40,867 nt of DNA, from the NCBI GenBank assembly GCA_964016885.1, contig CAXHJY010001265.1, positions 1 to 40,867 of the forward strand, given 5' to 3'. This document shows, piece after piece, positions 1-39,214 of the stretch. Both the position numbers and the translations under genes were made by a program. The notes under the pieces were generated by a model, which was given only the letters and a program-made list of their open reading frames with translations, was not told where the DNA came from and made no database searches. Within the stretch, counting starts at the first letter, position 1. Every line of letters starts with the position of its first letter. The DNA comes from Eledone cirrhosa (taxonomy: Eukaryota).

Positions 1-920
<920 letters not shown>

Positions 921-1130
921 CATCATCATCATCATCATCAGCGTTTAACGTCCGTGTTCCACGCTTGCATGGGTTTGGACGGGGGTAGTCCCACTTGAGG
1001 CAAGAGTGATTGTCTTGCTCGCATAGGACTGTCTGGCAGGTTTTCTACAGTTGGATGCCCTTCCTAACACCAACCACATTTACAGTGTGGGTCTGGGAGG
1101 TTTTTACCGTGTTGCCTACACGGCCACATT
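921..1130 (-). mobile_element. 3' end of a non-LTR retroposon (RTE-partner SINE-like) with a (GAT)n tail
   Basis: (CAT)n followed by gcgtttaacgtccgtgttccacgcttgcatgggtttggacgg and ggatgcccttcctaacaccaaccac. Resembles a common octopus interspersed repeat (recalled, not searched). Confidence 0.6.
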
Positions 1131-1279
1131 ACAGCGTGGACTGTGTGTTTTTTTGTCGTGACACCTACACGATCTCATTTGTTTCGGCCTCGATGGCGCG
1201 GCACCAACATAACTTTACATAGAACGGGGTGGTGTGGATCGGGTGGGGGTGGTGGGACGGGGTGTATTTGTTAGAGATG

Positions 1280-1326
1280 CTATATATATATATATTTATT
1301 TATATATATATATATATTTATATATT

Positions 1327-1401
<75 letters not shown>

Positions 1402-1466
1402 ATATTTATATATTTATATATATATATATATTTATATATATATTTATATATATATATATTTATATA

Positions 1467-1514
<48 letters not shown>

Positions 1515-1670
1515 TATATATATATATATTTATATATATATATATTTATATATATTTATATATATATATTTATATATATATATATTTATTTATATATATA
1601 TTTATTTATATATATATTTATTTATATATATATATTTATATATATATATTTATATATATATATATATATA

Positions 1671-1746
<76 letters not shown>

Positions 1747-1803
1747 TATGTATGTATACGTACATACATATATGTATACAGACGTACAGTAGCATGCACA
1801 CAT

Positions 1804-1837
<34 letters not shown>

Positions 1838-1852
1838 TTATATATATATATT

Positions 1853-1924
<72 letters not shown>

Positions 1925-1981
1925 TATGTATGTATACGTACATACATATATGTATACAGACGTACAGTAGCATGCACACAT

Positions 1982-2050
<69 letters not shown>
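1280..2050. repeat. (TA)n/(CA)n tracts with a duplicated ~60-bp spacer
   Basis: taagtatgtatgtatacgtacatacatatatgtatacagacgtacagtagcatgcacac occurs at 1743, 1921 and again at 2432. Confidence 0.95.
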
Positions 2051-2052
<2 letters not shown>

Positions 2053-2203
2053 GGTACACATACATATATGCACGCATCAGTTTAGCCGACGTTTATTATA
2101 ACGCAGCTTTGTTCGTTTGTTTGTCAACAAACAGAACAGCCTGAATTTATGCCATACGGTGTTAAGGCAACCACGTCACCTTTTTGTTCAACACTGACAC
2201 AGG

Positions 2204-2248
2204 AACGATGTACTAGTTTCAAGCTTGTTAGCTATCATCAGCACCGTT
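2204..2248 (-). ncRNA. Minimal type I hammerhead ribozyme motif (family E)
   Basis: Minus strand reads AACGGUG-CUGAUGA-UAGCUAACAAGCUU-GAA-ACUAGU-A-CAUCGUU: 7-bp stem I, AGCU/AGCU stem II (U.U at base), palindromic stem III, GUA cleavage triplet. Confidence 0.8.
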
Positions 2249-2366
2249 TACCCATCTGCCAGATAGTTGAACGTTCGAAAGTATATACTTTCCTTATGAA
2301 AATTAACGGCTGAGCAGCCCAATTTGCATATTGAGTGAGTTAAATCGGTCAGGCATACCGAAAACG

Positions 2367-2597
2367 ATAAGTTGAAAAAAAATGAAAACGAAATTTCATT
2401 TCTCACTCTTAGTATGGCACTTACTTAAATGTAAGTATGTATGTATACGTACATACATATATGTATACAGACGTACAGTAGCATGCACACATATATACAT
2501 ATACATATATGTATGTACGTATACATACATACTTACATTTAAGTAAGTGCCATACTAAGAGTGAGAAATGAAATTTCGTTTTCATTTTTTTTCAACT

Positions 2598-2600
<3 letters not shown>
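2367..2600. repeat. Perfect inverted repeat (101-bp arms, 32-bp loop) abutting (TA)n
   Basis: 2367-2467 is the reverse complement of 2500-2600. Confidence 0.95.
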
Positions 2601-2650
<50 letters not shown>

Positions 2651-2687
2651 TTATATTTATATATATATTTATATTTATATATATATT

Positions 2688-2718
<31 letters not shown>

Positions 2719-2752
2719 ATATATTATATATATATATTTATATATATATATT

Positions 2753-2802
<50 letters not shown>

Positions 2803-3177
2803 TATATATATTTATATCTATATATATATATATTTATATATATATTTTTATCTATATATATATATTTATATATATATATATATTTATATCTATATATATA
2901 TATTTTTATATATTTATATATATATATATTTTTATATATTTATATTTATATATATATATATATATATTTATTTATATATATATATATTTATTTATATATA
3001 TATATATATATTTATTTATATATATATATAAATTTATTTATATATATATATATATATATAAATTTATTTATATATATATTTATATATATATTTATTTATT
3101 TATATATTTATATATATTTATTTATATATATTTATTTATATATTTATATATTTTTATTTATATATTTATATATATAT
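2598..3177. repeat. Interrupted (TA)n tract
   Basis: TA repeat with TTTA interruptions. Confidence 0.97.
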
Positions 3178-3537
3178 TTTGTTATACTTTGGGAGGGCCA
3201 TGTTGCCAATAAGAAACACACGCACCGGTTGCTTTCACTTCAATTTATTATAATAAATTTATAATAAATTTATAATTTTCTGGTTGGTTGGTTGGTTCCA
3301 CAACCAGATAGTTGTTTATATATTGTCATAGTTCTTTCGTCAAACACTCTGTGACCTCTTCAGTGACTGGGGATTCCTTTCTTTGTTTCTGTGCCTCTCC
3401 TTTGTTCTGTCCTACGCCATTTTGTTTCTGTCCTTTTTTTGTTTCTTATTGGCAACATGACCCTCCCAAAGTATAACAATATCGATTTTAACACACGATT
3501 TCAGATAAAGAATCTTGCTAAACAAATTCAGAAACGA

Positions 3538-3541
<4 letters not shown>
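3178..3541. mobile_element. Truncated Penelope-like element (family A), 3' region with an inverted terminal segment
   Basis: 3178-3430 matches 5850-6100. 3440-3541 is an inverted copy of the 3' end plus a ~60-bp extension matching 5788-5849. Flanked by (TA)n on both sides. Confidence 0.8.
3325..3367 (-). ncRNA. Minimal hammerhead ribozyme motif (family A)
   Basis: GUCA-CUGAAGA-GGUCACAGAGUGUUUGAC-GAA-AGAACU-A-UGAC. Confidence 0.65.
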
Positions 3542-4752
<1,211 letters not shown>

Positions 4753-8640: not shown

Positions 8641-9036
8641 AGTGCTAGAGTGAGAGAGATGTGGTGGGGACGGTGGAGCACTATCTATTTCTATCTAAAT
8701 ATCCTCTGAGAAATAGAAAGACACATGAAACTCAATAAGAAATGTTTCTAAGATTCTGATTTAAAACATTTATACTCCTCCTCCCTCCTAGTCTCTCCCT
8801 GTCTTGGATCAATTAAGATTTATTGTCCTCTGGTGTGGGTGTATTTGTGTAACCAGGTATTTTATGGTGGAGCTGACCCCCGTGTAAACACCCACCAGGT
8901 GAAGTTCAATATAACATTTTAAATGTTTCATTTATAAGACATACATGCGCGCACGCTCGTACACTTTCTATCTCCCCCCCCCCCCATCTCAATGGTTGAG
9001 AAAGTACGATAAGGTATTATTATTAGCCAATCCAAA

Positions 9037-9613
9037 GGGCAGTGGATTGGCAGTATCGGTAGAGGGTCGGACGCCATGCTTTGCAGCATAGAGTTACGGC
9101 TCTTTATGATTTGAGCTCAAATCCCGCCGAGGTTAACTTTGCCTTTCATCCTTATGGGGTCGATAAAATAAAGTACCAGTCACGCACTGGGGTCGATTTA
9201 ATCGACTTTCTCCCCCCCCCCCCCCCAAAAAAAAAAATTTACTGGCCTTGTGCCCATATAAGAAACCATTATTAGCCAATCCAAAGGGCAGTGGATTGGC
9301 AGTATCGGTAGAGGGTCGGACGCCATGCTTTGACGCATAGTTACGGCCCTTGCCATTCTGAGTTCAAATCCCGCCGAGGTTAACTTTGCCTTTCATCCTT
9401 ACGGGGTCGATAAAATAAAGTACCAATAATGCACTGGGTAATTTCTGGCCTTGTGCCAAAAGTAGAAACAACTATTAGTCAATCCCGCCAAGGTTAGCTT
9501 TAACTTTCATCCTTACGAGGTCGATAGAATAAAGTACCAGTAATGAACATGGGTCGATTTAATCGACTTTCCCCACCTCCAAAATTGTTGGCCTTGTGCC
9601 TAAATCAGAAACC
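9037..9613 (+). mobile_element. Three tandem copies of the dominant tRNA-derived SINE
   Basis: A-box-like tggcagtatcggt, B-box gagttcaaatcc, tail ggccttgtgcc..agaaac. Copies at ~9037, ~9286 and ~9480, separated by attattagccaatcc-like sequence. Confidence 0.9.
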
Positions 9614-10232
9614 ATTATTAGCCAGTATGTCACGCGGTCAGATCTGCTTCAGTTGCTTGTTTCCTTTTTATTCTCTTTAAATATAGCACCTACAGTAATG
9701 CCACACCCGAGATATCAGTCACCATCAGAGACACACATTAACAAAATACCGGGAACTTACAAACCATTAAAGTTATCCTCATTGAGGTTAATCTCATAAA
9801 AGATTAAGACTATGGTGTTTATACATGTCTGCGCATGTCACCACCATTCTAATCCACTCTCTAAGAGGAGATATGATTGAAAAATAGAAAATATTAGCAC
9901 ATTATTCCAGATAAATGTAATGACTTGTAAAATATGAATGCTAGTTCACTGTTCCAATCTAAAAACTCTTGGAAATTACAACTTTGGAGGAAATAGATGG
10001 AACTGGAGACATGATACATTTAAAATGATGAAAGGACTTGAAAATATGCAGAAGAGTTCATCCATCGCCATCACACTTCTTTCTTTTTGGGGTGGGGGTG
10101 GAGGGTGAGGAAGGAAAAGGACCCTAAATATCATGAAATATATGGTACAAGTTGTTTGTCTTACTTTACTCTAGTTTTCACTCTTCTATTTCTAACTTGC
10201 ATTGTGCTGGCTTTCCCCCGAATAATCCTAAC

Positions 10233-12434: not shown

Positions 12435-12739
12435 GTGTCTGTCTGTCTGTGTGTCGCTTTTCAGATATTTTGATCTTTAGATAAATATTCTTTGTGTGTG
12501 AGTCGGAGCTCGACGACTGAACTCTTGCTGTTTACACACACACTCACACACTGTGTGTATAACTGTATGTGTGGTAAATTATTGTTCTAGTCACAGCCAT
12601 GCTTTTCTGTCCCCCCCCCCCCCCTCCCCTGTATTTAGTAGTCAGGTTGATGGATGTAGTGTGCTAGAAATGTGAGATGAACCCCTTCCACTCTTTTATT
12701 ATGGCTGTCCCTAAACCTCTACTTTAATCTGGGTGTTTG

Positions 12740-12800
<61 letters not shown>

Positions 12801-12803
<3 letters not shown>

Positions 12804-12942
12804 CGAAGGAAATGTGGTAAGGAACCAGGTGGACCATAACGCACCAAAGTACTCAATACTTAGGGTAGTAGAGTGGGTAATTCTGGACGCGTCCAGAATT
12901 AGCCGTCGAAACGGCTTGAGCTCAGCCGTCGGGGTCTTACTT

Positions 12943-12984
<42 letters not shown>

Positions 12985-13147
12985 CAAAGGAATTGTGGTA
13001 AGGAACCAGATGGACCATAACGCACCAGAGTACTCAACACTTAGGGTAGTAGAGTGGGAAATAGGAAAAAGTATGACCCCGACGGCAGAGCTCAAGCCGT
13101 TAGCCGTCGAAACGGCTTGAGCTCTGTCGTCGGGGTCATACTTTTTA

Positions 13148-13149
<2 letters not shown>
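12801..13149. mobile_element. Two rearranged family D copies separated by (TA)n, each with an internal inversion
   Basis: 12801-12876 is duplicated at 12982-13058. Hairpin aaaaagtatgaccccgacggcagagctcaagccgtt / aacggcttgagctctgtcgtcggggtcatacttttt at ~13066-13146. Confidence 0.7.
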
Positions 13150-13193
<44 letters not shown>

Positions 13194-13194
<1 letters not shown>

Positions 13195-13527
13195 AAGATG
13201 CGTGACTTAGTGGTTAAAGAGTTGGGCTTGCAATCGGGAGGGGGCTAGTTCGATTCTCCGAACGGGTGATGCGTTGTGTCCTTGATCAAGACACTTTATT
13301 TCATGTTGCTCCAGTTTCCTCAGCTGTAGAAATGAGTTGCGATGTCTCTGGTGTCAAGCTGTATCGGCATTTGCCTTCCCCTTGGACAACATAGGTGGCG
13401 TGAAGAGGGGAGACTGGTATGCATGGGTGACTGCTAGTCTTCCACAAAAAACCTTGCCCGGACTTGTGCCTCGGAAAGGAACTTTCTAGGTGCAAATCCC
13501 ATGGCATTCGTGACTGATGGGTGGGAG
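13194..13527 (+). mobile_element. Near full-length tRNA-derived (CORE-like) SINE
   Basis: A box gtgacttagtgg, B box agttcgattc, central gtccttgatcaagacacttt. Confidence 0.85.
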
Positions 13528-20585: not shown

Positions 20586-21048
20586 CCATTGTTAAAAACA
20601 ACCGAGAAACTTCCTGTAAACTACAACCTCGTAATCGGCCAGCTAAACCGGTATAGGTGTGAACTGTAACAACATAAGAGAACTGGGGCTCTCACCATTA
20701 AAACACCCGAGAAATTTCCTGTGAAATGCATCCTCATGGGGCCAGCTAAACCTGCTGTACATTTCATTATTTTTTCATTTTCATACCCCTACTTATATGG
20801 AATTGTTAGAACGTCGGGCGGGATACCTTGTCGAGTTTGTTTAGGGTGGGATGGTGCACCTTGAGCAATGTCCTTTTTCATAGTCTCGGACCGGCTCATT
20901 CATTATAATTTAAACCGGGTGTAAAAGCCCGACGGATGGAGTGTACTTGTAACCCAGAAGTACAACCTTGTCGCTGCACAGTGTGTCGTGCTGGTTTTAC
21001 TCGAGAATTATATATGGTTGTCTGCGGAATACGCAGGTATACTCAGCG

Positions 21049-21568
21049 ACTCTTGGGTCTCAAATAATAGGGGGTTGGTGGAATAAGGGATCTCTTGATT
21101 TAAAAAACAAACAAACACAGAATTAGTCGTTTAGTTCACCTATTGAGGCCCCATCGCACCCTATTTTATAGCGTATAGGATTTTTTTGCAATATATAATT
21201 TTCTACATTTGGCACAAGGCCAACAATTATCCCAGTGCATTACTAGTACTTTATTTTATCAACCCCGTAAGGATGAAAGGTAAAGTTAACCTCGGTGGGA
21301 TTTGAACTCGGACCATAAAGAGGTGTAACTCTATGCTGCAAAGCATGGCGTCTGCCCCTCTACTGATACTGCCAATCCACCACCCTCATATATATAATGT
21401 TTTTTTTAATGTATAAAGAAAATTGATTGTAGCCGGACTGCTACCACTTAACAAATTAAAATTTCGCTGTAGATAGATTAGCAAAATTTAATAAGCGGGG
21501 GTGTGGTGTAGGGTGGACGAAAAAATCTGAAAAATTAATAAGCCGGGGTGGAGATGAGACCCAAGAGT
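21049..21568. mobile_element. MITE-like element with 14-bp TIRs, interrupted by a SINE
   Basis: actcttgggtctca (21049-21062) / tgagacccaagagt (21555-21568), with subterminal aata(a)g(c)gggg motifs. Confidence 0.65.
21200..21386 (-). mobile_element. Dominant tRNA-SINE copy
   Basis: Full consensus on minus; probable TSD atatataat (21191-21199 / 21390-21398). Confidence 0.9.
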
Positions 21569-26725: not shown

Positions 26726-27035
26726 GAAGAAGAGGAAGATTTATGGAATATATAAGGCGAAATGAGGAAGACTAATTTGAAGAAACTGAGGCCTACGAAG
26801 GAGATGAGACTGAGAGAAGCTATACGTGGTGCTAAAGATCCGCTTACCTGTGATAGAATGGTGATAGGGATGATGGATTTTGGGAGTTATGATATATCTA
26901 CGTTTGTAAATAGACGCCAGCACGAGGAGTAATTTACCCAATTTTCTTATTACCTATTACAATCGATAGATATTACATTAATTTTCTGTTTGGGACTTTC
27001 ACATTTTCAATTTTACATTTGTGTTTCTCGCCCAG

Positions 27036-27615
27036 AATTGGCAGTATCGGTAGAGGGTCGGACATGTTTCCAGCATAGTTACGTCCCTTTACGATCTGAG
27101 TTCAAATCCGGCCGAGGTTAACTTTGCCTTTCATCCTTACGGGGTCGATAAAATAAAGTACCAGTAATACACTGGAATAATTGCTGGCCTTGTGCCAAAA
27201 GTAGAAATAATTATATTCCAATATTATAGGGTGGTGAATTGGCAGTGTCGGTAGAGGGTTGGACGCCATGCTTTCTAGCATAGTTACGTCCCTTTACGAT
27301 CTGAGTTCAAATCCCGCCGAGGTTAACTTTGCCTTTCATCCTTACGGGGTCGATAAAATAAAGTACTAGTAATGTACTGGGTAATTGCTGGCCTTGTGCC
27401 TAAAGTAGAAACAATTATATTCGAAGGGTGTTGATAAAGCATCGGACACCATGTCTCGTGACATAGTTACGTCCCTTTACGTTCTGAGTTCAAATCTCGC
27501 CGAGGTTATCTTTGCCTTTCATTCTTACGGGGTCGATAAAATAAAGCACCAGTAATACACTTGGGATCGACTACCCCCACCCCCATCGCCAACCTTCTGC
27601 CTAAATCAGAAACCA
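27036..27615 (+). mobile_element. Three tandem copies of the dominant tRNA-SINE
   Basis: Copies at ~27036, ~27229 and ~27425, each followed by attatattc. Confidence 0.9.
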
Positions 27616-27972
27616 TTATATTCCTGCTAAATCTCTAACAGTTGTCTTCTTCGTTAGTCTCCCATTTATCTACCTCACCCTACCTCTCTTCCCCTAGTCC
27701 TCCCTCTCTCTTTCTCTTACTCACTTCCTATCTTATTAATCACTTGCTCTTACTATTACTCATCCTTCAACTCTCCACATATACTCTCTCTCTCATCGTC
27801 ACACACAAAGGTAATGGCGCTCCAAGGAAAGATAACTTTTGATCATTTGATCGTGCTAAAATCTAAAGATGCCCTTCAAAGGCAGAGAATATATAATCTG
27901 TTGTTAAGTGGGATTTACTTGTTAAATTGCGATGGTTGAATAATGATATAAAAGTTGTCTTGTCGGCTTCAC

Positions 27973-32076: not shown

Positions 32077-32501
32077 ACTTTAAAGTTCGCACACGCACAT
32101 GTACACCTACACCTTATTTCAGTCACATTGTTACAATGAGATTCGCTTTCCATCTCGGTTCTTGTCCTACATTTGTTCCTTCGCTTTCCAATCACAATGC
32201 CTTCGGTTCTAGTCCTACATCTGACCCTCCAAATAGTAATTTCTACTAAGTTACTTATACATACATGTCATTTGTACATACACGCTGAACATTTATGTAA
32301 TTATATCCTAGAAACAAATTATAAATATTTTTATCTTTAATCACGTTTTAATCACGCCTACGTGTCAGCAGTAATCAACAGAAACTATAGTGTTTCTCTT
32401 AAGCAAACCATTGATTTATCAGAATGCAAATTTCCCAGACCAATCCTGGACTCCAAAAGTTTGGAACATTCAACGCTATTTGTCTTCATTATTGACAGCA
32501 C

Positions 32502-32547
32502 TGTAATGCACTGGGTAATTGCTGGCCTTGTGCCTAAAGTAGAAACA
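32502..32547 (+). mobile_element. Severely 5'-truncated SINE (tail only) with a 14-bp TSD
   Basis: attattgacagcac at 32488-32501 and 32548-32561. Confidence 0.9.
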
Positions 32548-32619
32548 ATTATTGACAGCACGCGTCTTTCAGTTGTAATCAAGGTCAACAATTTTGGGTG
32601 GTTGGAGGGTTGATTAAAT

Positions 32620-33296
32620 CGAATCCAGTGCATTACTGGTACTTTATTTTATCGACCCCGTACGTATGAAAAGCAAGGCTAATGTTAAATTTTCTTTTAC
32701 TTTTTGGTATTTAAAATACGTTCATCTTATGGTTAACTTAAAATAAGAGATAGACACAAACATTAATAAAAAATTTAACATTTGTTGGAAATTGTTTGTT
32801 CTTTCAAAAAGCCGCACAGAATGGCATCGGAGGCCGCAGATCCCCCATCTTTGTTCTAACCAGTCAGTCAATACACCAACACACTGATTTAGGCTCAAGG
32901 CCAATAATTTGGGTACTTTATTTTATCGACTCCGTAAGGATGAAAGGCAAAGCTAACCTCGGCGGGATTTGAACTCAGAACGTACAGGGCCGTAACTATA
33001 TGTTGCGGATGGTATTAAGGCTGTGAATTGGCAGTTGTTAGAGCTTGGTGGTCCGACCCTCTACCGATACCGATCATCCACTGCCCTTTATCAGTAGATT
33101 ATAGATAATTGTTTCTAATTTAGGCACAAGGCCAGCAAATACCCAGTGCATTACTGGTACTTTATTTTATCGACCTCGTAAGGATGAAAGGCAAAGTCAA
33201 CCTCGGCGGGATTTGAACTCAGATCGTAAAGGGACTTAACTATGCTGGAAAGCATGGCGTCCGACCCTCTACCGATACTGCCAATCCACCTGCCAA
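32620..33296 (-). mobile_element. Cluster of three minus-strand SINE copies
   Basis: Copies at ~32620-32680, ~32890-33087 and 33110-33296; the last has TSD tagattatagataat (33095-33109 / 33297-33311). Confidence 0.88.
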
Positions 33297-33835
33297 TAGA
33301 TTATAGATAATGATTAATAATTTGTATTGTGTAAATATTTCTCTCAGGTTGAGCCGTGTTTCTTGGTTTGTGTCAGTCTTTGCGCTTACGTAACTAACAA
33401 CACACTTTGTGTATGCCACCGCAAGCAACAACGTTTTGTTTCTTTGTTTATTTATTCAGAACTATTTATTCTGAACGCAGAAGATCATATTGTTTATTGC
33501 GCAATATTTTATGATGAGTAATGCTAACATGACCGAACACTGGTCAGTTTTTCTTTCAGTTAAGGATTTTTGGTGCGCGTGTGCGCGCGCACTTAACAAG
33601 TGGTACAATGTGCTTTTGAGCAAAATACTTTAATTTCATATTGTTGAAAATGAGTATCATCGTCAGCAGTAGCTTTAACCCAAGCCTTTTTTTAAAGGAT
33701 CACGAAGGGTGACAACTCTATCGTTGACGTTATATCCTCTCGTGTCCTTGGCAAAACGCCACATGTTGCAAATGTCCTTTATCCTAAATCTCTTAAAAGA
33801 ATCTCTATCATTTTTTTTTTGCTCAACATTATTTA

Positions 33836-35407: not shown

Positions 35408-36124
35408 AACAAACAAAACGGAGTCATTATACATAGTTAGGTCCACGATATATATATCAAATGTATATATTGAGTTAGAAACTCAATAGTCTCTTACAAT
35501 AAAATAGCTCTGGGAAAGAGATTTTTCCGAGCTGTATTTTATAATTGAATATAAAAGAAAAAGAACACAGATATATACATATGTGTTCAAATAGTAAGGG
35601 ACCAGATTCGCTCAGGTTAAAAGAATACTAACTATAGACAATAGGGTTTGCCAGCCTCAATTTAAGAATAAATCAAGAAAATAAATACAAACCGGAATTG
35701 TGGTAACTACCAATCACCCAGACAGCTTTGGTAATGCTGTTTCGCAAAATTAATTGTGAAGAGGAATACCAATTCTTGCTCATCAGTGGGTGAAGAATTA
35801 GTATCCTGGACACTTCTAAGTATATTAAAAAACTGAATAGTGTGCGTATATATAATAACGCACATGGTATCGGAACATAGCGTGTCCCACAAACTCACAC
35901 CACTAAAAATTGCAGCCAGGTTTACTCGACATTTGAATTAGCTCAACAAATTAACGGAGCCGATTATATCAAAGGTAAATATTGAGTTAGAAACTCAAAA
36001 TAGTCTCTTACAATAAAATAGCTCTAGGAAAGAGATTTTTCCGAGCCGTATATTATAATTGAACACATATGCATATATCTGTGTTCGTTTTTCTTTATAT
36101 TCAAATAGTAAGGGACCAGATTCG
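35408..36124 (-). mobile_element. Retrozyme-like / non-autonomous PLE-like 1.3-mer
   Basis: Direct repeats 35467-35610 and 35979-36124 (period ~512) enclose a canonical hammerhead; no coding signal; ends at (TA)/(GT)n. Confidence 0.65.
35708..35803 (-). ncRNA. Canonical full-stem type I hammerhead ribozyme
   Basis: UACUAA-UUCU-UCACCCA-CUGAUGA-GCAAGAAUUG...CAAUUAAUUUUGC-GAA-ACAGC-AUUACCAAA-GCUGU-C-UGGGUGA-UUGGUA. All core nucleotides, GUC triplet and three stems are present. Confidence 0.92.
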
Positions 36125-36135
36125 ATATATATATT

Positions 36136-36187
<52 letters not shown>

Positions 36188-37647: not shown

Positions 37648-37760
37648 TTATTAACTTATAAATATGTCTTACAGTTAGTTAACTGTATAATAACAGAAAC
37701 TGATCTACATTCTAGTTCTGGTATAGAGTTCTCCTTTTACGTGTGATGTGTGTGTGTGTG

Positions 37761-37897
37761 ATTGTTTCTACTTTTGGCACACGGCCACCAATTAGCCTAG
37801 AGCATTACTGGTACTTTATTTTATCGGCCCCGTAAGGATGAAAGGCAAAGTTAACTTCGGCGGGAATTGAACTCAGAACGTAAATGGCCATAACTCT

Positions 37898-37972
<75 letters not shown>

Positions 37973-38365
37973 GTTTGTACTTTGGCACAAGGCCAGCAAA
38001 TTATCCCAGTACATTACTGGTACTTTATTTTATCGACCCCGTAAGGATGAAAGGCAAAGTTAACCTCAGCGGGATTTGAACTCAGACCGTAAAGGGACGT
38101 AAATATGCTGCAAAATGTGTGTGTGTGTGATTATAATGTACCATTACCACCTGTATAGAAACGAACGTAGATATAAAAAAATGGATTTAATTTGATAACC
38201 TTGGCTCTCTTCATTGTCGAATAGAATGCTTTACGGTATTCATCTTTGCTCTCTCAGTTCAAATTCCGCCGAGGCCAACTTTGCCTTTCATCCTTTTGAG
38301 GTCGATGAAATAAAGTACCAGTAATTCCTGAGATAATTGCTGGCCTTGTGCCAAAAGTACAAACG
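37761..38365. mobile_element. Three 5'-truncated SINE copies (37761-37898 -, 37969-38112 -, 38254-38365 +)
   Basis: Consensus B-box and tail motifs. Confidence 0.88.
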
Positions 38366-38404
<39 letters not shown>

Positions 38405-38442
38405 CATGGTCTCAGGCCCTCGACTGGAACGCACAATCTCTT

Positions 38443-38487
<45 letters not shown>

Positions 38488-39214
38488 AACTGTTTCATTG
38501 GTAAAAAAAAAAATCATTTGTAGAAGTCATCTCTATAATATAATAAATATGCCTATACTAACGTATTGAGTACTTTTTTTCTTTTCTTTTTTTAAATCTG
38601 TGGTGCCCTTCCGATATAGTGGAGCAAGACTAGAACTTGTGATTTCCTTAGAATGAAACGGTTCTAGGGCTGCAGAAGCCATATATATATAATATCGGTG
38701 GTATAAATACAGCATCTAACTTACTCAACAGATCCAGTGAATTGCAGTTACGCAGCTGCAATCACATGTTCAGTGTGCACACATTTAGTTTTACTGTAGA
38801 GCGTAGGCTGTGTTTTTAATTAGAGGTGTGTGTGTGTGTGTGTGTGAAATGGTCTCGGGTTTTTAAAAAGAGTAATTGGTGTCGTGCCAGCAAATGTAAC
38901 TTAAAGATCGATAAAATAAGTACCAGACAGGATAACTGCTAAAATGGTGCTTTGTTTCTTTGTTAGAAACCAGTCCCCCCCCCCCTTGTGTGTGTAAAAT
39001 AAATAATAGGTAACAAGCACACGCATGCAACAAGCAGGTATGCATGTGCAGACCTGAGCAGGTGGGTGCCAGCTGGGGTAGGTAGAGGGGGCTGTTCCCC
39101 TGACATTTTAGTTCTTTTGTTGTTCTTTTAAACGTAAGTATACCATGCACACTGTTGAACCTGCGCCGCTTCCGACCACGCTGGCCCATGAAATTATCTT
39201 TTATGCTAAGTATT

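Follow-up and report, generated by a model that had tools for sequence, protein, structure and literature searches.

A circularly permuted hammerhead repeat of Eledone cirrhosa with 3′ ends at twin hairpins also present in candidate Hydra-clade Penelope elements

The window that we have analysed is an entire contig of 40.9 kb (40,867 nucleotides; CAXHJY010001265.1) from Eledone cirrhosa, the genome of which is 3.0 Gb in size and rich in microsatellites. Its minus strand carries an insertion of a non-coding repeat that contains a type I hammerhead motif (Table 1). The insertion is a single arm that ends at the site termed A below, and has (TA)n on both sides. Unit positions throughout refer to a natural copy (L013:1428-1943, 516 nt), in which CUGAUGA starts at position 278 and C17 lies at 342. 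Three contig runs from one sample were used solely to define the limits of the element.

An earlier note on this DNA described a hammerhead between direct repeats of ~145 bp, within a unit of ~512 bp and a span of 35408 to 36124. The direct repeats are present, although they measure ~160 nt, and the period is 514 nt, becoming 512 only across a 2-nt indel. The element ends near 35452, within a TA run, and positions 35408-35447 are therefore flank. There is indeed no coding signal: any stop-to-stop frame that reaches into the element is shorter than 120 aa, and no RT plus GIY-YIG ORF of an autonomous Penelope-like element (PLE) was found within it. A 36-nt inversion in the 5′ repeat had escaped notice; its junction words are absent from every other sampled locus. 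Elsewhere in the window, positions 1-4752 are occupied by a ~4.7 kb array of TA and TTTA broken by short unique pieces, and further dispersed repeats lie at 9000-9750, 12500-13500, 21000-21500, 27000-27750, 32500-33500, 37750-38500 and 39750, each of which matches dozens of sampled loci.

Table 1. Features of the insertion, in window coordinates.
Feature	Position	Strand	Basis or remark
Whole insertion, ~1.3 units (5′ end at unit ~453, 3′ end at site A)	35452..36124	-	Flanks common to no other locus
Single unit, 514 nt (512 across the 2-nt indel; 516 nt in the reference copy L013)	35550..36063	-	
5′ repeat, second template pass	35965..36124	-	
3′ repeat, part copied first	35453..35610	-	
Type I hammerhead, predicted GUC cut 35721/35720	35708..35803 (core 35786-35780 + 35743-35740)	-	Descriptor, conservation
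36-nt micro-inversion of hairpin loop, bounded by TTGAA (36059-36063) and TTCAA (36100-36104)	36064..36099	+	
Bulged GCUC/GAGC hairpin after site B, internal copy	36021..36046	-	
Bulged GCUC/GAGC hairpin after site A, internal copy	35941..35960	-	
Site-B hairpin within the 3′ repeat, bulge CA	35507..35532	-	Sequence
Site A end, element ...TTTGATATAT fusing into the target TA run	35448..35458	-	
TA run beside the 5′ junction (opposite side of the target microsatellite)	36125..36142	.	

A hammerhead descriptor applied to both strands of the window gave one match, on the minus strand, with CUGAUGA beginning at 35786. Stem I comprises 7 bp, a 4-nt bulge and then 6 bp more. Stem II begins with a G-C pair (4 bp, G-U and U-G, and 4 further bp), and stem III consists of 4 bp plus A15.1-U16.1 with a loop of 9 nt. 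The CUGANGA, GAAA and NUH elements, three stems and open stem I of the type I fold are thus all present, and both the fold with its G-C pair and the predicted cut, which follows from C17 at 35721, are those that the earlier note had proposed. A search against Rfam returned no hammerhead family either at the gathering score or at E ≤ 5. The long loop II may explain this, and the call therefore relies on the descriptor together with conservation in the family.

The 12-nt core is intact in 114 of 160 family hammerheads. Among 58 distinct copies 92.6% of cells are paired, and 24 cells are changed on both sides against a shuffled mean of 6.5 (none of 500 shuffles was as high), a figure that is inflated by kinship of the copies. 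In an alignment of 60 copies, pairs altered on both sides occur once in stem II, twice in stem III and at the pair that closes stem I, and the length of loop III is variable. Such a pattern would be expected if the fold had been under selection in source lineages. Taken by itself, the 101-nt motif has only a modest folding advantage over its shuffles (z = −2.4), and its minimum-energy fold differs from that of the hammerhead. The rival fold lies below the catalytic fold by 4.0 kcal/mol in the window copy and by a median of 4.35 in 80 copies. It is driven by pairing between loop II and loop III, where UUGGUA is complementary to UACCAA (window 35730-35736 and 35767-35772, minus strand); in these computed folds such pairing could hold the ribozyme shut.

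A DNA search gave 2584 first-look candidates, the top 40 of which have 94-96% identity, the window itself excepted. Exact 24-34-mers of the unit occurred 138, 692, 381, 92 and 595 times, and the reversed controls 0 times. The locus is therefore not single-copy, and its relatives are circularly permuted, as had been anticipated. On identities of 85-97% the family would number at least hundreds of copies, and probably thousands. Older relatives were seen at 77% (L187:74-1549, about three units) and at 71% identity (L293:10-233), so that the history of the family goes deeper.

We mapped 154 loci, comprising 30 best matches, 30 with an anchor in the ribozyme, 87 with one immediately 3′ of the cut and 7 picked by hand. 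Removal of duplicates, of arms shorter than 45 nt and of arms touching an edge left 268 arms in 146 loci. Since the loci were chosen by exact words or best matches, the sample is biased towards long, young copies, mostly on two contigs. The family is dispersed, non-coding and circularly permuted, with one type I hammerhead in each unit. The permutation, however, is not random, a point missed previously. While the 5′ ends are scattered round the entire unit, the 3′ ends of 204 of the 268 arms fall at two sites 85 nt apart: 103 at A (unit 92-103) and 101 at B (unit 8-17). A TA run follows 78 of the A ends and 79 of the B ends, compared with 11 of the 64 other ends. Single-arm loci have a TA run on the 5′ side as well in 12 of 39 cases.

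Arms longer than one unit are common (66/204), and therefore the template was circular or multimeric; this agrees with the earlier description of the window copy as a 1.3-mer from such an RNA. Long rolling-circle arrays were considered and ruled out, as only two of the 268 arms reach two units. Two hammerheads are found in four of the 268, one of which resembles a local duplication. In a 2.4-unit copy (L097:4769-6036) units one and two have private changes in common, among them a broken GAAA, and the third ribozyme differs; it looks like a local duplication after insertion. Partial tandems, an inverted 5′ arm, a one-sided tail and a microsatellite target, all of them features of PLE-mobilised elements, are present in the family.

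The use of the two sites follows a strict rule in head-to-head insertions. Both ends lie at A or B in 60 of 98 such pairs, and every one of the 60 has one end at A and the other at B (binomial p ~1e-18 against one half); the remaining 38 have at least one end away from both sites. Note that one of the 60 is the inversion in the window itself, leaving 59 of 59, and that two loci (L020 and L021) look like a single duplicated event. Sixty more loci, as a test on new material, provided 54 new arms and 21 pairs, and A+B was found in all eight pairs with both ends at the sites. The arms of a pair share non-majority letters at 31%, compared with 5% for arms of other loci, and disagree at no more than one diagnostic site in 48 of 53 pairs, which indicates that they were copied from the same or a sibling RNA. 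Their junctions overlap in 56 of the 98 pairs.

Three autonomous Penelope families of this genome, H1 (713 aa), H2 (784 aa) and H3 (821 aa), were compared with the repeat. H1 was found through a locus where it is joined directly to the repeat, and H2 and H3 beside other copies of the repeat. Their proteins have a CxCx5C linker, CxxC and CxH, and a C-terminal EN without CCHH, and the elements insert at (TA)n. Read against the accessible part of the published description (PMC8557442), these features would place all three in the Hydra clade. A Pfam search returned no family for H1, and an assignment of H1 to Neptune was dropped in favour of Hydra on reading the motifs. Each family has two end sites that run into (TA)n, with a spacing of 88 nt in H1, 83 nt in H2 and 91 nt in H3. 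A+B pairs make up 10/18, 12/19 and 7/15 of all pairs in the same order, or 29 of 52 in total. No A+A or B+B pair was found in H1-H3, so that all 29 pairs with both ends at the sites are A+B.

At each of the eight sites, two in the repeat and two in each of H1-H3, the element stops a few bases 5′ of a single kind of bulged hairpin. This has the order RCUC, inner stem, 2-nt 3′ bulge and GAGY, and opens with a G-C pair in six cases and with A-U in the other two. A descriptor of the hairpin, composed after the eight sites had been seen, matches exactly twice in each unit, at both ends, and nowhere else on either strand of the ~11.5 kb of unit sequence; shuffled units give 0.02-0.24 matches per unit. 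BLAST found no similarity between the repeat and the H1-H3 units, the hairpin pair being the only sequence found in common. These hairpin-marked fixed ends, which the earlier note had passed over, are the main information in the locus.

In one of the 146 loci (L031:3879-7297; G000:C3, ~170.516-170.519 Mb) two arms of the repeat are joined without a TA run to an H1 copy that is 5′-truncated at the RT motif, and the composite is flanked as a whole by (TA)n. The junction may result from a template jump between helper and passenger RNA, or could be due to a later deletion. In five loci of the first set, the repeat and a separate H1 end have a TA run in common. In none of 175 loci with arms does a PLE ORF run into the unit from upstream, and the unit is thus not simply the 3′ UTR of an autonomous PLE in any locus examined. 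Together with the lack of similarity to H1-H3, this indicates that the unit is a passenger with the handle of its helper, and not a stump of H1-H3. An autonomous parent was absent from the H1-H3 units and from 76 of their loci, the one match at 71% being a separate old copy; a closer parent may lie among families that were not sampled.

We consider that the repeat is probably a non-LTR retrozyme, moved in trans into (TA)n by a Hydra-clade enzyme that would bind the two hairpins and prime one strand at each. In such a process the GIY-YIG nuclease would nick both strands of the (TA)n target, and each nicked 3′ end would anneal to a UA-rich patch lying 2-7 nt 5′ of a hairpin. Each enzyme subunit would bind one hairpin, the two RT subunits would copy one RNA or sibling RNAs, and their cDNAs would then be joined at the distal ends, overlapping slightly or leaving a short gap. 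In the window copy the loop of a hairpin would have been flipped by a template switch. In the available sections of a study of the Poseidon element PAc of Anolis in vitro, both strands of the target are cut and extended by the PLE protein, for which a dimer is predicted, and synthesis begins at two internal positions of the RNA, which delimit the tail (PMC11167929).

The form of the template is a separate question, and here we regard a circle as having an even chance. The RNA would be a unit-length circle excised by two hammerheads from rare longer source loci, at about even odds; copying would then go once round and stall soon after. As it has one ribozyme, the window copy could not excise a monomer itself. 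That arms of more than one unit are common while loci with two ribozymes are rare is consistent with a circle, as is the rise in stopping after about one round. Circular folding of the unit is strong as well (z = −3.0, 60 shuffles). Going further, we suggest tentatively, and at somewhat below an even chance, that a viroid-sized circular RNA mimics the two-hairpin handle, so that Hydra-clade RT dimers would start on both strands of a (TA)n break from staggered positions within a single RNA molecule.

The alternative that survives best has the same Hydra helper and twin priming, but the transcript copied would be linear and for the most part uncut, beginning close to unit position 451 and extending for ~1.3 units. 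On this view the window copy, which runs from 453 to A, would be complete and able to renew itself, much as a Penelope element flanked by pLTRs but lacking the ORF, and a circle would be unnecessary. We think this plausible, though less likely than not. The 5′ stops of the second pass do cluster at 451-486 in both A and B arms, at 2.3 per 100 nt compared with 0.3 in the body and 0.7 when the first pass crosses this same region; of the 33 arms that reach this region 18 stop there, and the window copy begins there too. Yet the other 15 pass 451, extending up to 1.7 units, and the stops are smeared over 451-516, where a hairpin and a TA-rich stretch could pause RT. The scarcity of arms with two hammerheads also fits a linear transcript, as do short H1 arms, which often start at one site 75 nt before B, much as far from it as the stops in the repeat. 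In the accessible text on PAc, moreover, ribozyme cleavage is dispensable for insertion and uncut RNA is the main substrate (PMC11167929). Repeats within one arm also disagree 40 times at subfamily-diagnostic sites, where ~10 are expected, unstable columns included, again in favour of a linear RNA. A purely linear cycle, however, would let the repeats diverge, and they differ by 5.0%, near the 4.3% for twin arms (p = 0.10, columns free of CpG and gaps) and below the ~9% for unrelated loci (all columns). It would also leave the conserved hammerhead with little role.

The possibility that most copies stop at the ribozyme cut was suggested by a step in depth and by word counts (692 downstream, 54 spanning and 138 upstream), and was rejected, as 151 of 204 arms cross the cut; the step in depth is due to differences between subfamilies in stem II and loop III. 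Two of 86 anchored arms have 5′ ends at 341-344, compared with 1.0 expected (p = 0.28). A wider interval of 338-344, chosen post hoc, has six against 1.8 (p = 0.01), and four of these six include bases 5′ of the cut. The earlier expectation that the predicted ribozyme would cleave as a monomer is weakened by the rival fold, calculated to be better by ~4 kcal/mol, by the arms that cross the cut and by the absence of an excess of 5′ ends there.

It is also conceivable that the unit represents a pseudo-LTR detached from an autonomous Penelope family that the genome still contains, the copies being 5′-truncated stumps of that family. Xenopus retrozymes have been traced to PLE pLTRs in the accessible part of a recent preprint (bioRxiv 10.64898/2026.07.22.740005), every end feature of the repeat is a PLE feature, and of tens of thousands of candidates our comparison took in three complete families together with a few fragments. 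Nevertheless, we regard this as very unlikely. What lies upstream of the unit in the many arms exceeding one unit is the unit itself, and in none of the arm-bearing loci does a PLE ORF lead into it; the neighbouring elements are separate insertions sharing a TA run, and the H1-H3 termini bear no similarity to the repeat. Ancestry from an extinct pLTR is likely, and is compatible with trans mobilisation by a Hydra-clade enzyme. Finally, that the inverted arms arose not from two priming events but from later DNA rearrangement or from fold-back self-priming, put forward in the accessible text of PMC3846280 as the model for head-to-head PLE structures with palindromic junctions, is most improbable: the 36-nt flip in the window demonstrates that local template switches do happen, but in none of the 60 pairs are the two 5′ ends 10 nt or less apart, neither arm contains the other in 20, B extends further in 34 and A in 26, and fold-back leaves the second fixed end beside a second hairpin unexplained.

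The comparisons that follow refer to the accessible portions of the papers cited. Metazoan non-LTR retrozymes were defined, with PLEs named as their likely helpers, by Cervera and de la Pena (2020, PMC7229834), and have been tied to pLTRs by sequence in the preprint of Li, Clavereau and Pollet (2026, 10.64898/2026.07.22.740005). The repeat resembles them in its AT-rich non-coding unit, single type I hammerhead and many copies, in having no visible LTR, PBS or PPT, in a unit of 514 nt that lies within the preprint's range of 51-972 bp, and in its co-occurrence with PLEs. It differs in that it exceeds the circles of 170-400 nt shown in invertebrates, is dispersed in (TA)n as one- or two-armed copies with fixed ends, and has no sequence match to a PLE terminus in the three families compared. 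Tandems with at least two complete ribozymes are the preprint's criterion for an active locus, monomers still being family members; in the present family such tandems are nearly never found, and the window copy has one ribozyme. Plant LTR retrozymes have a type III hammerhead in LTRs and a 4-bp target duplication, whereas here the fold is type I, the repeats depend on permutation and the ends lie in TA runs.

The Hydra clade of C-terminal EN+ PLEs (Craig et al. 2021, PMC8557442) has the same (TA)n target, partial tandems, inverted 5′-truncated arm, one-sided tail and sense-strand hammerhead as the repeat. The repeat, however, has no ORF, the tail is 83-91 nt here against 30-40 nt there, and neither the twin bulged hairpins nor the strict rule of one A and one B was found in the sections of that paper available. 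PAc (Frangieh et al. 2024, PMC11167929) is similar in that two internal RT starts define the tail, and in the use of both strands of an AT-rich target. Its starts lie in an AC-rich stem-loop without target homology, whereas the UA-rich patches here match (TA)n, and both of its strands use the same sites where our two arms use different ones. The inverted arm, the tail and a self-priming model have been described for PLEs (PMC8557442, PMC11167929, PMC3846280, as far as accessible). The twin-hairpin rule was not found in a survey of the accessible literature on PLE twin priming, hairpin and dimer models and cephalopod retrozymes, made outside subscription journals, Repbase and preprint supplements. 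The class of element is itself known already.

In the portions available to us, the retrozyme papers propose mobilisation by PLEs without a mechanism, and the PLE papers leave the inverted arm and tail unexplained. Here a passenger and three autonomous families, which otherwise have no sequence in common, employ one pair of hairpins and one pairing rule. This points to a concrete cis signal, and could guide the use of PLE enzymes for RNA-templated insertion at (TA)n. With 514 nt the substrate is short enough for an in vitro test. If circular RNA does mimic the handle, a single model would account for the cis signal by which animal retrozymes hijack PLEs and for how PLEs come by their inverted arm and one-sided tail.

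Some further observations concern the neighbours of the repeat. An arm at L060:1297 is joined to a sequence that recurs in L093 near a short CUGACGA...GAAAC motif, possibly a second hammerhead-bearing family. The terminal repeat of H1 lacks a canonical CUGANGA hammerhead and has only CAGAAGA...GAAA (L092, reverse strand, 2915-2950 of the sampled stretch); no canonical hammerhead was seen in H2, and H3 has CUGAUGA...GAAA at unit 1230. In many tiny H1 insertions (L043:1079-1266; also L023, L108, L184, L093 and L095) the arms begin at unit 3169, TTAGTT, 75 nt before B, which in our view resembles an Inr. This fixed start suggests that transcription begins there, with priming on the 5′ copy of the hairpins. 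Lastly, four copies of H2 with open 784-aa frames lie in perfect tandem at a spacing of 3531 nt (G000:C1:437201752-437213142), an array that is possibly young and active.
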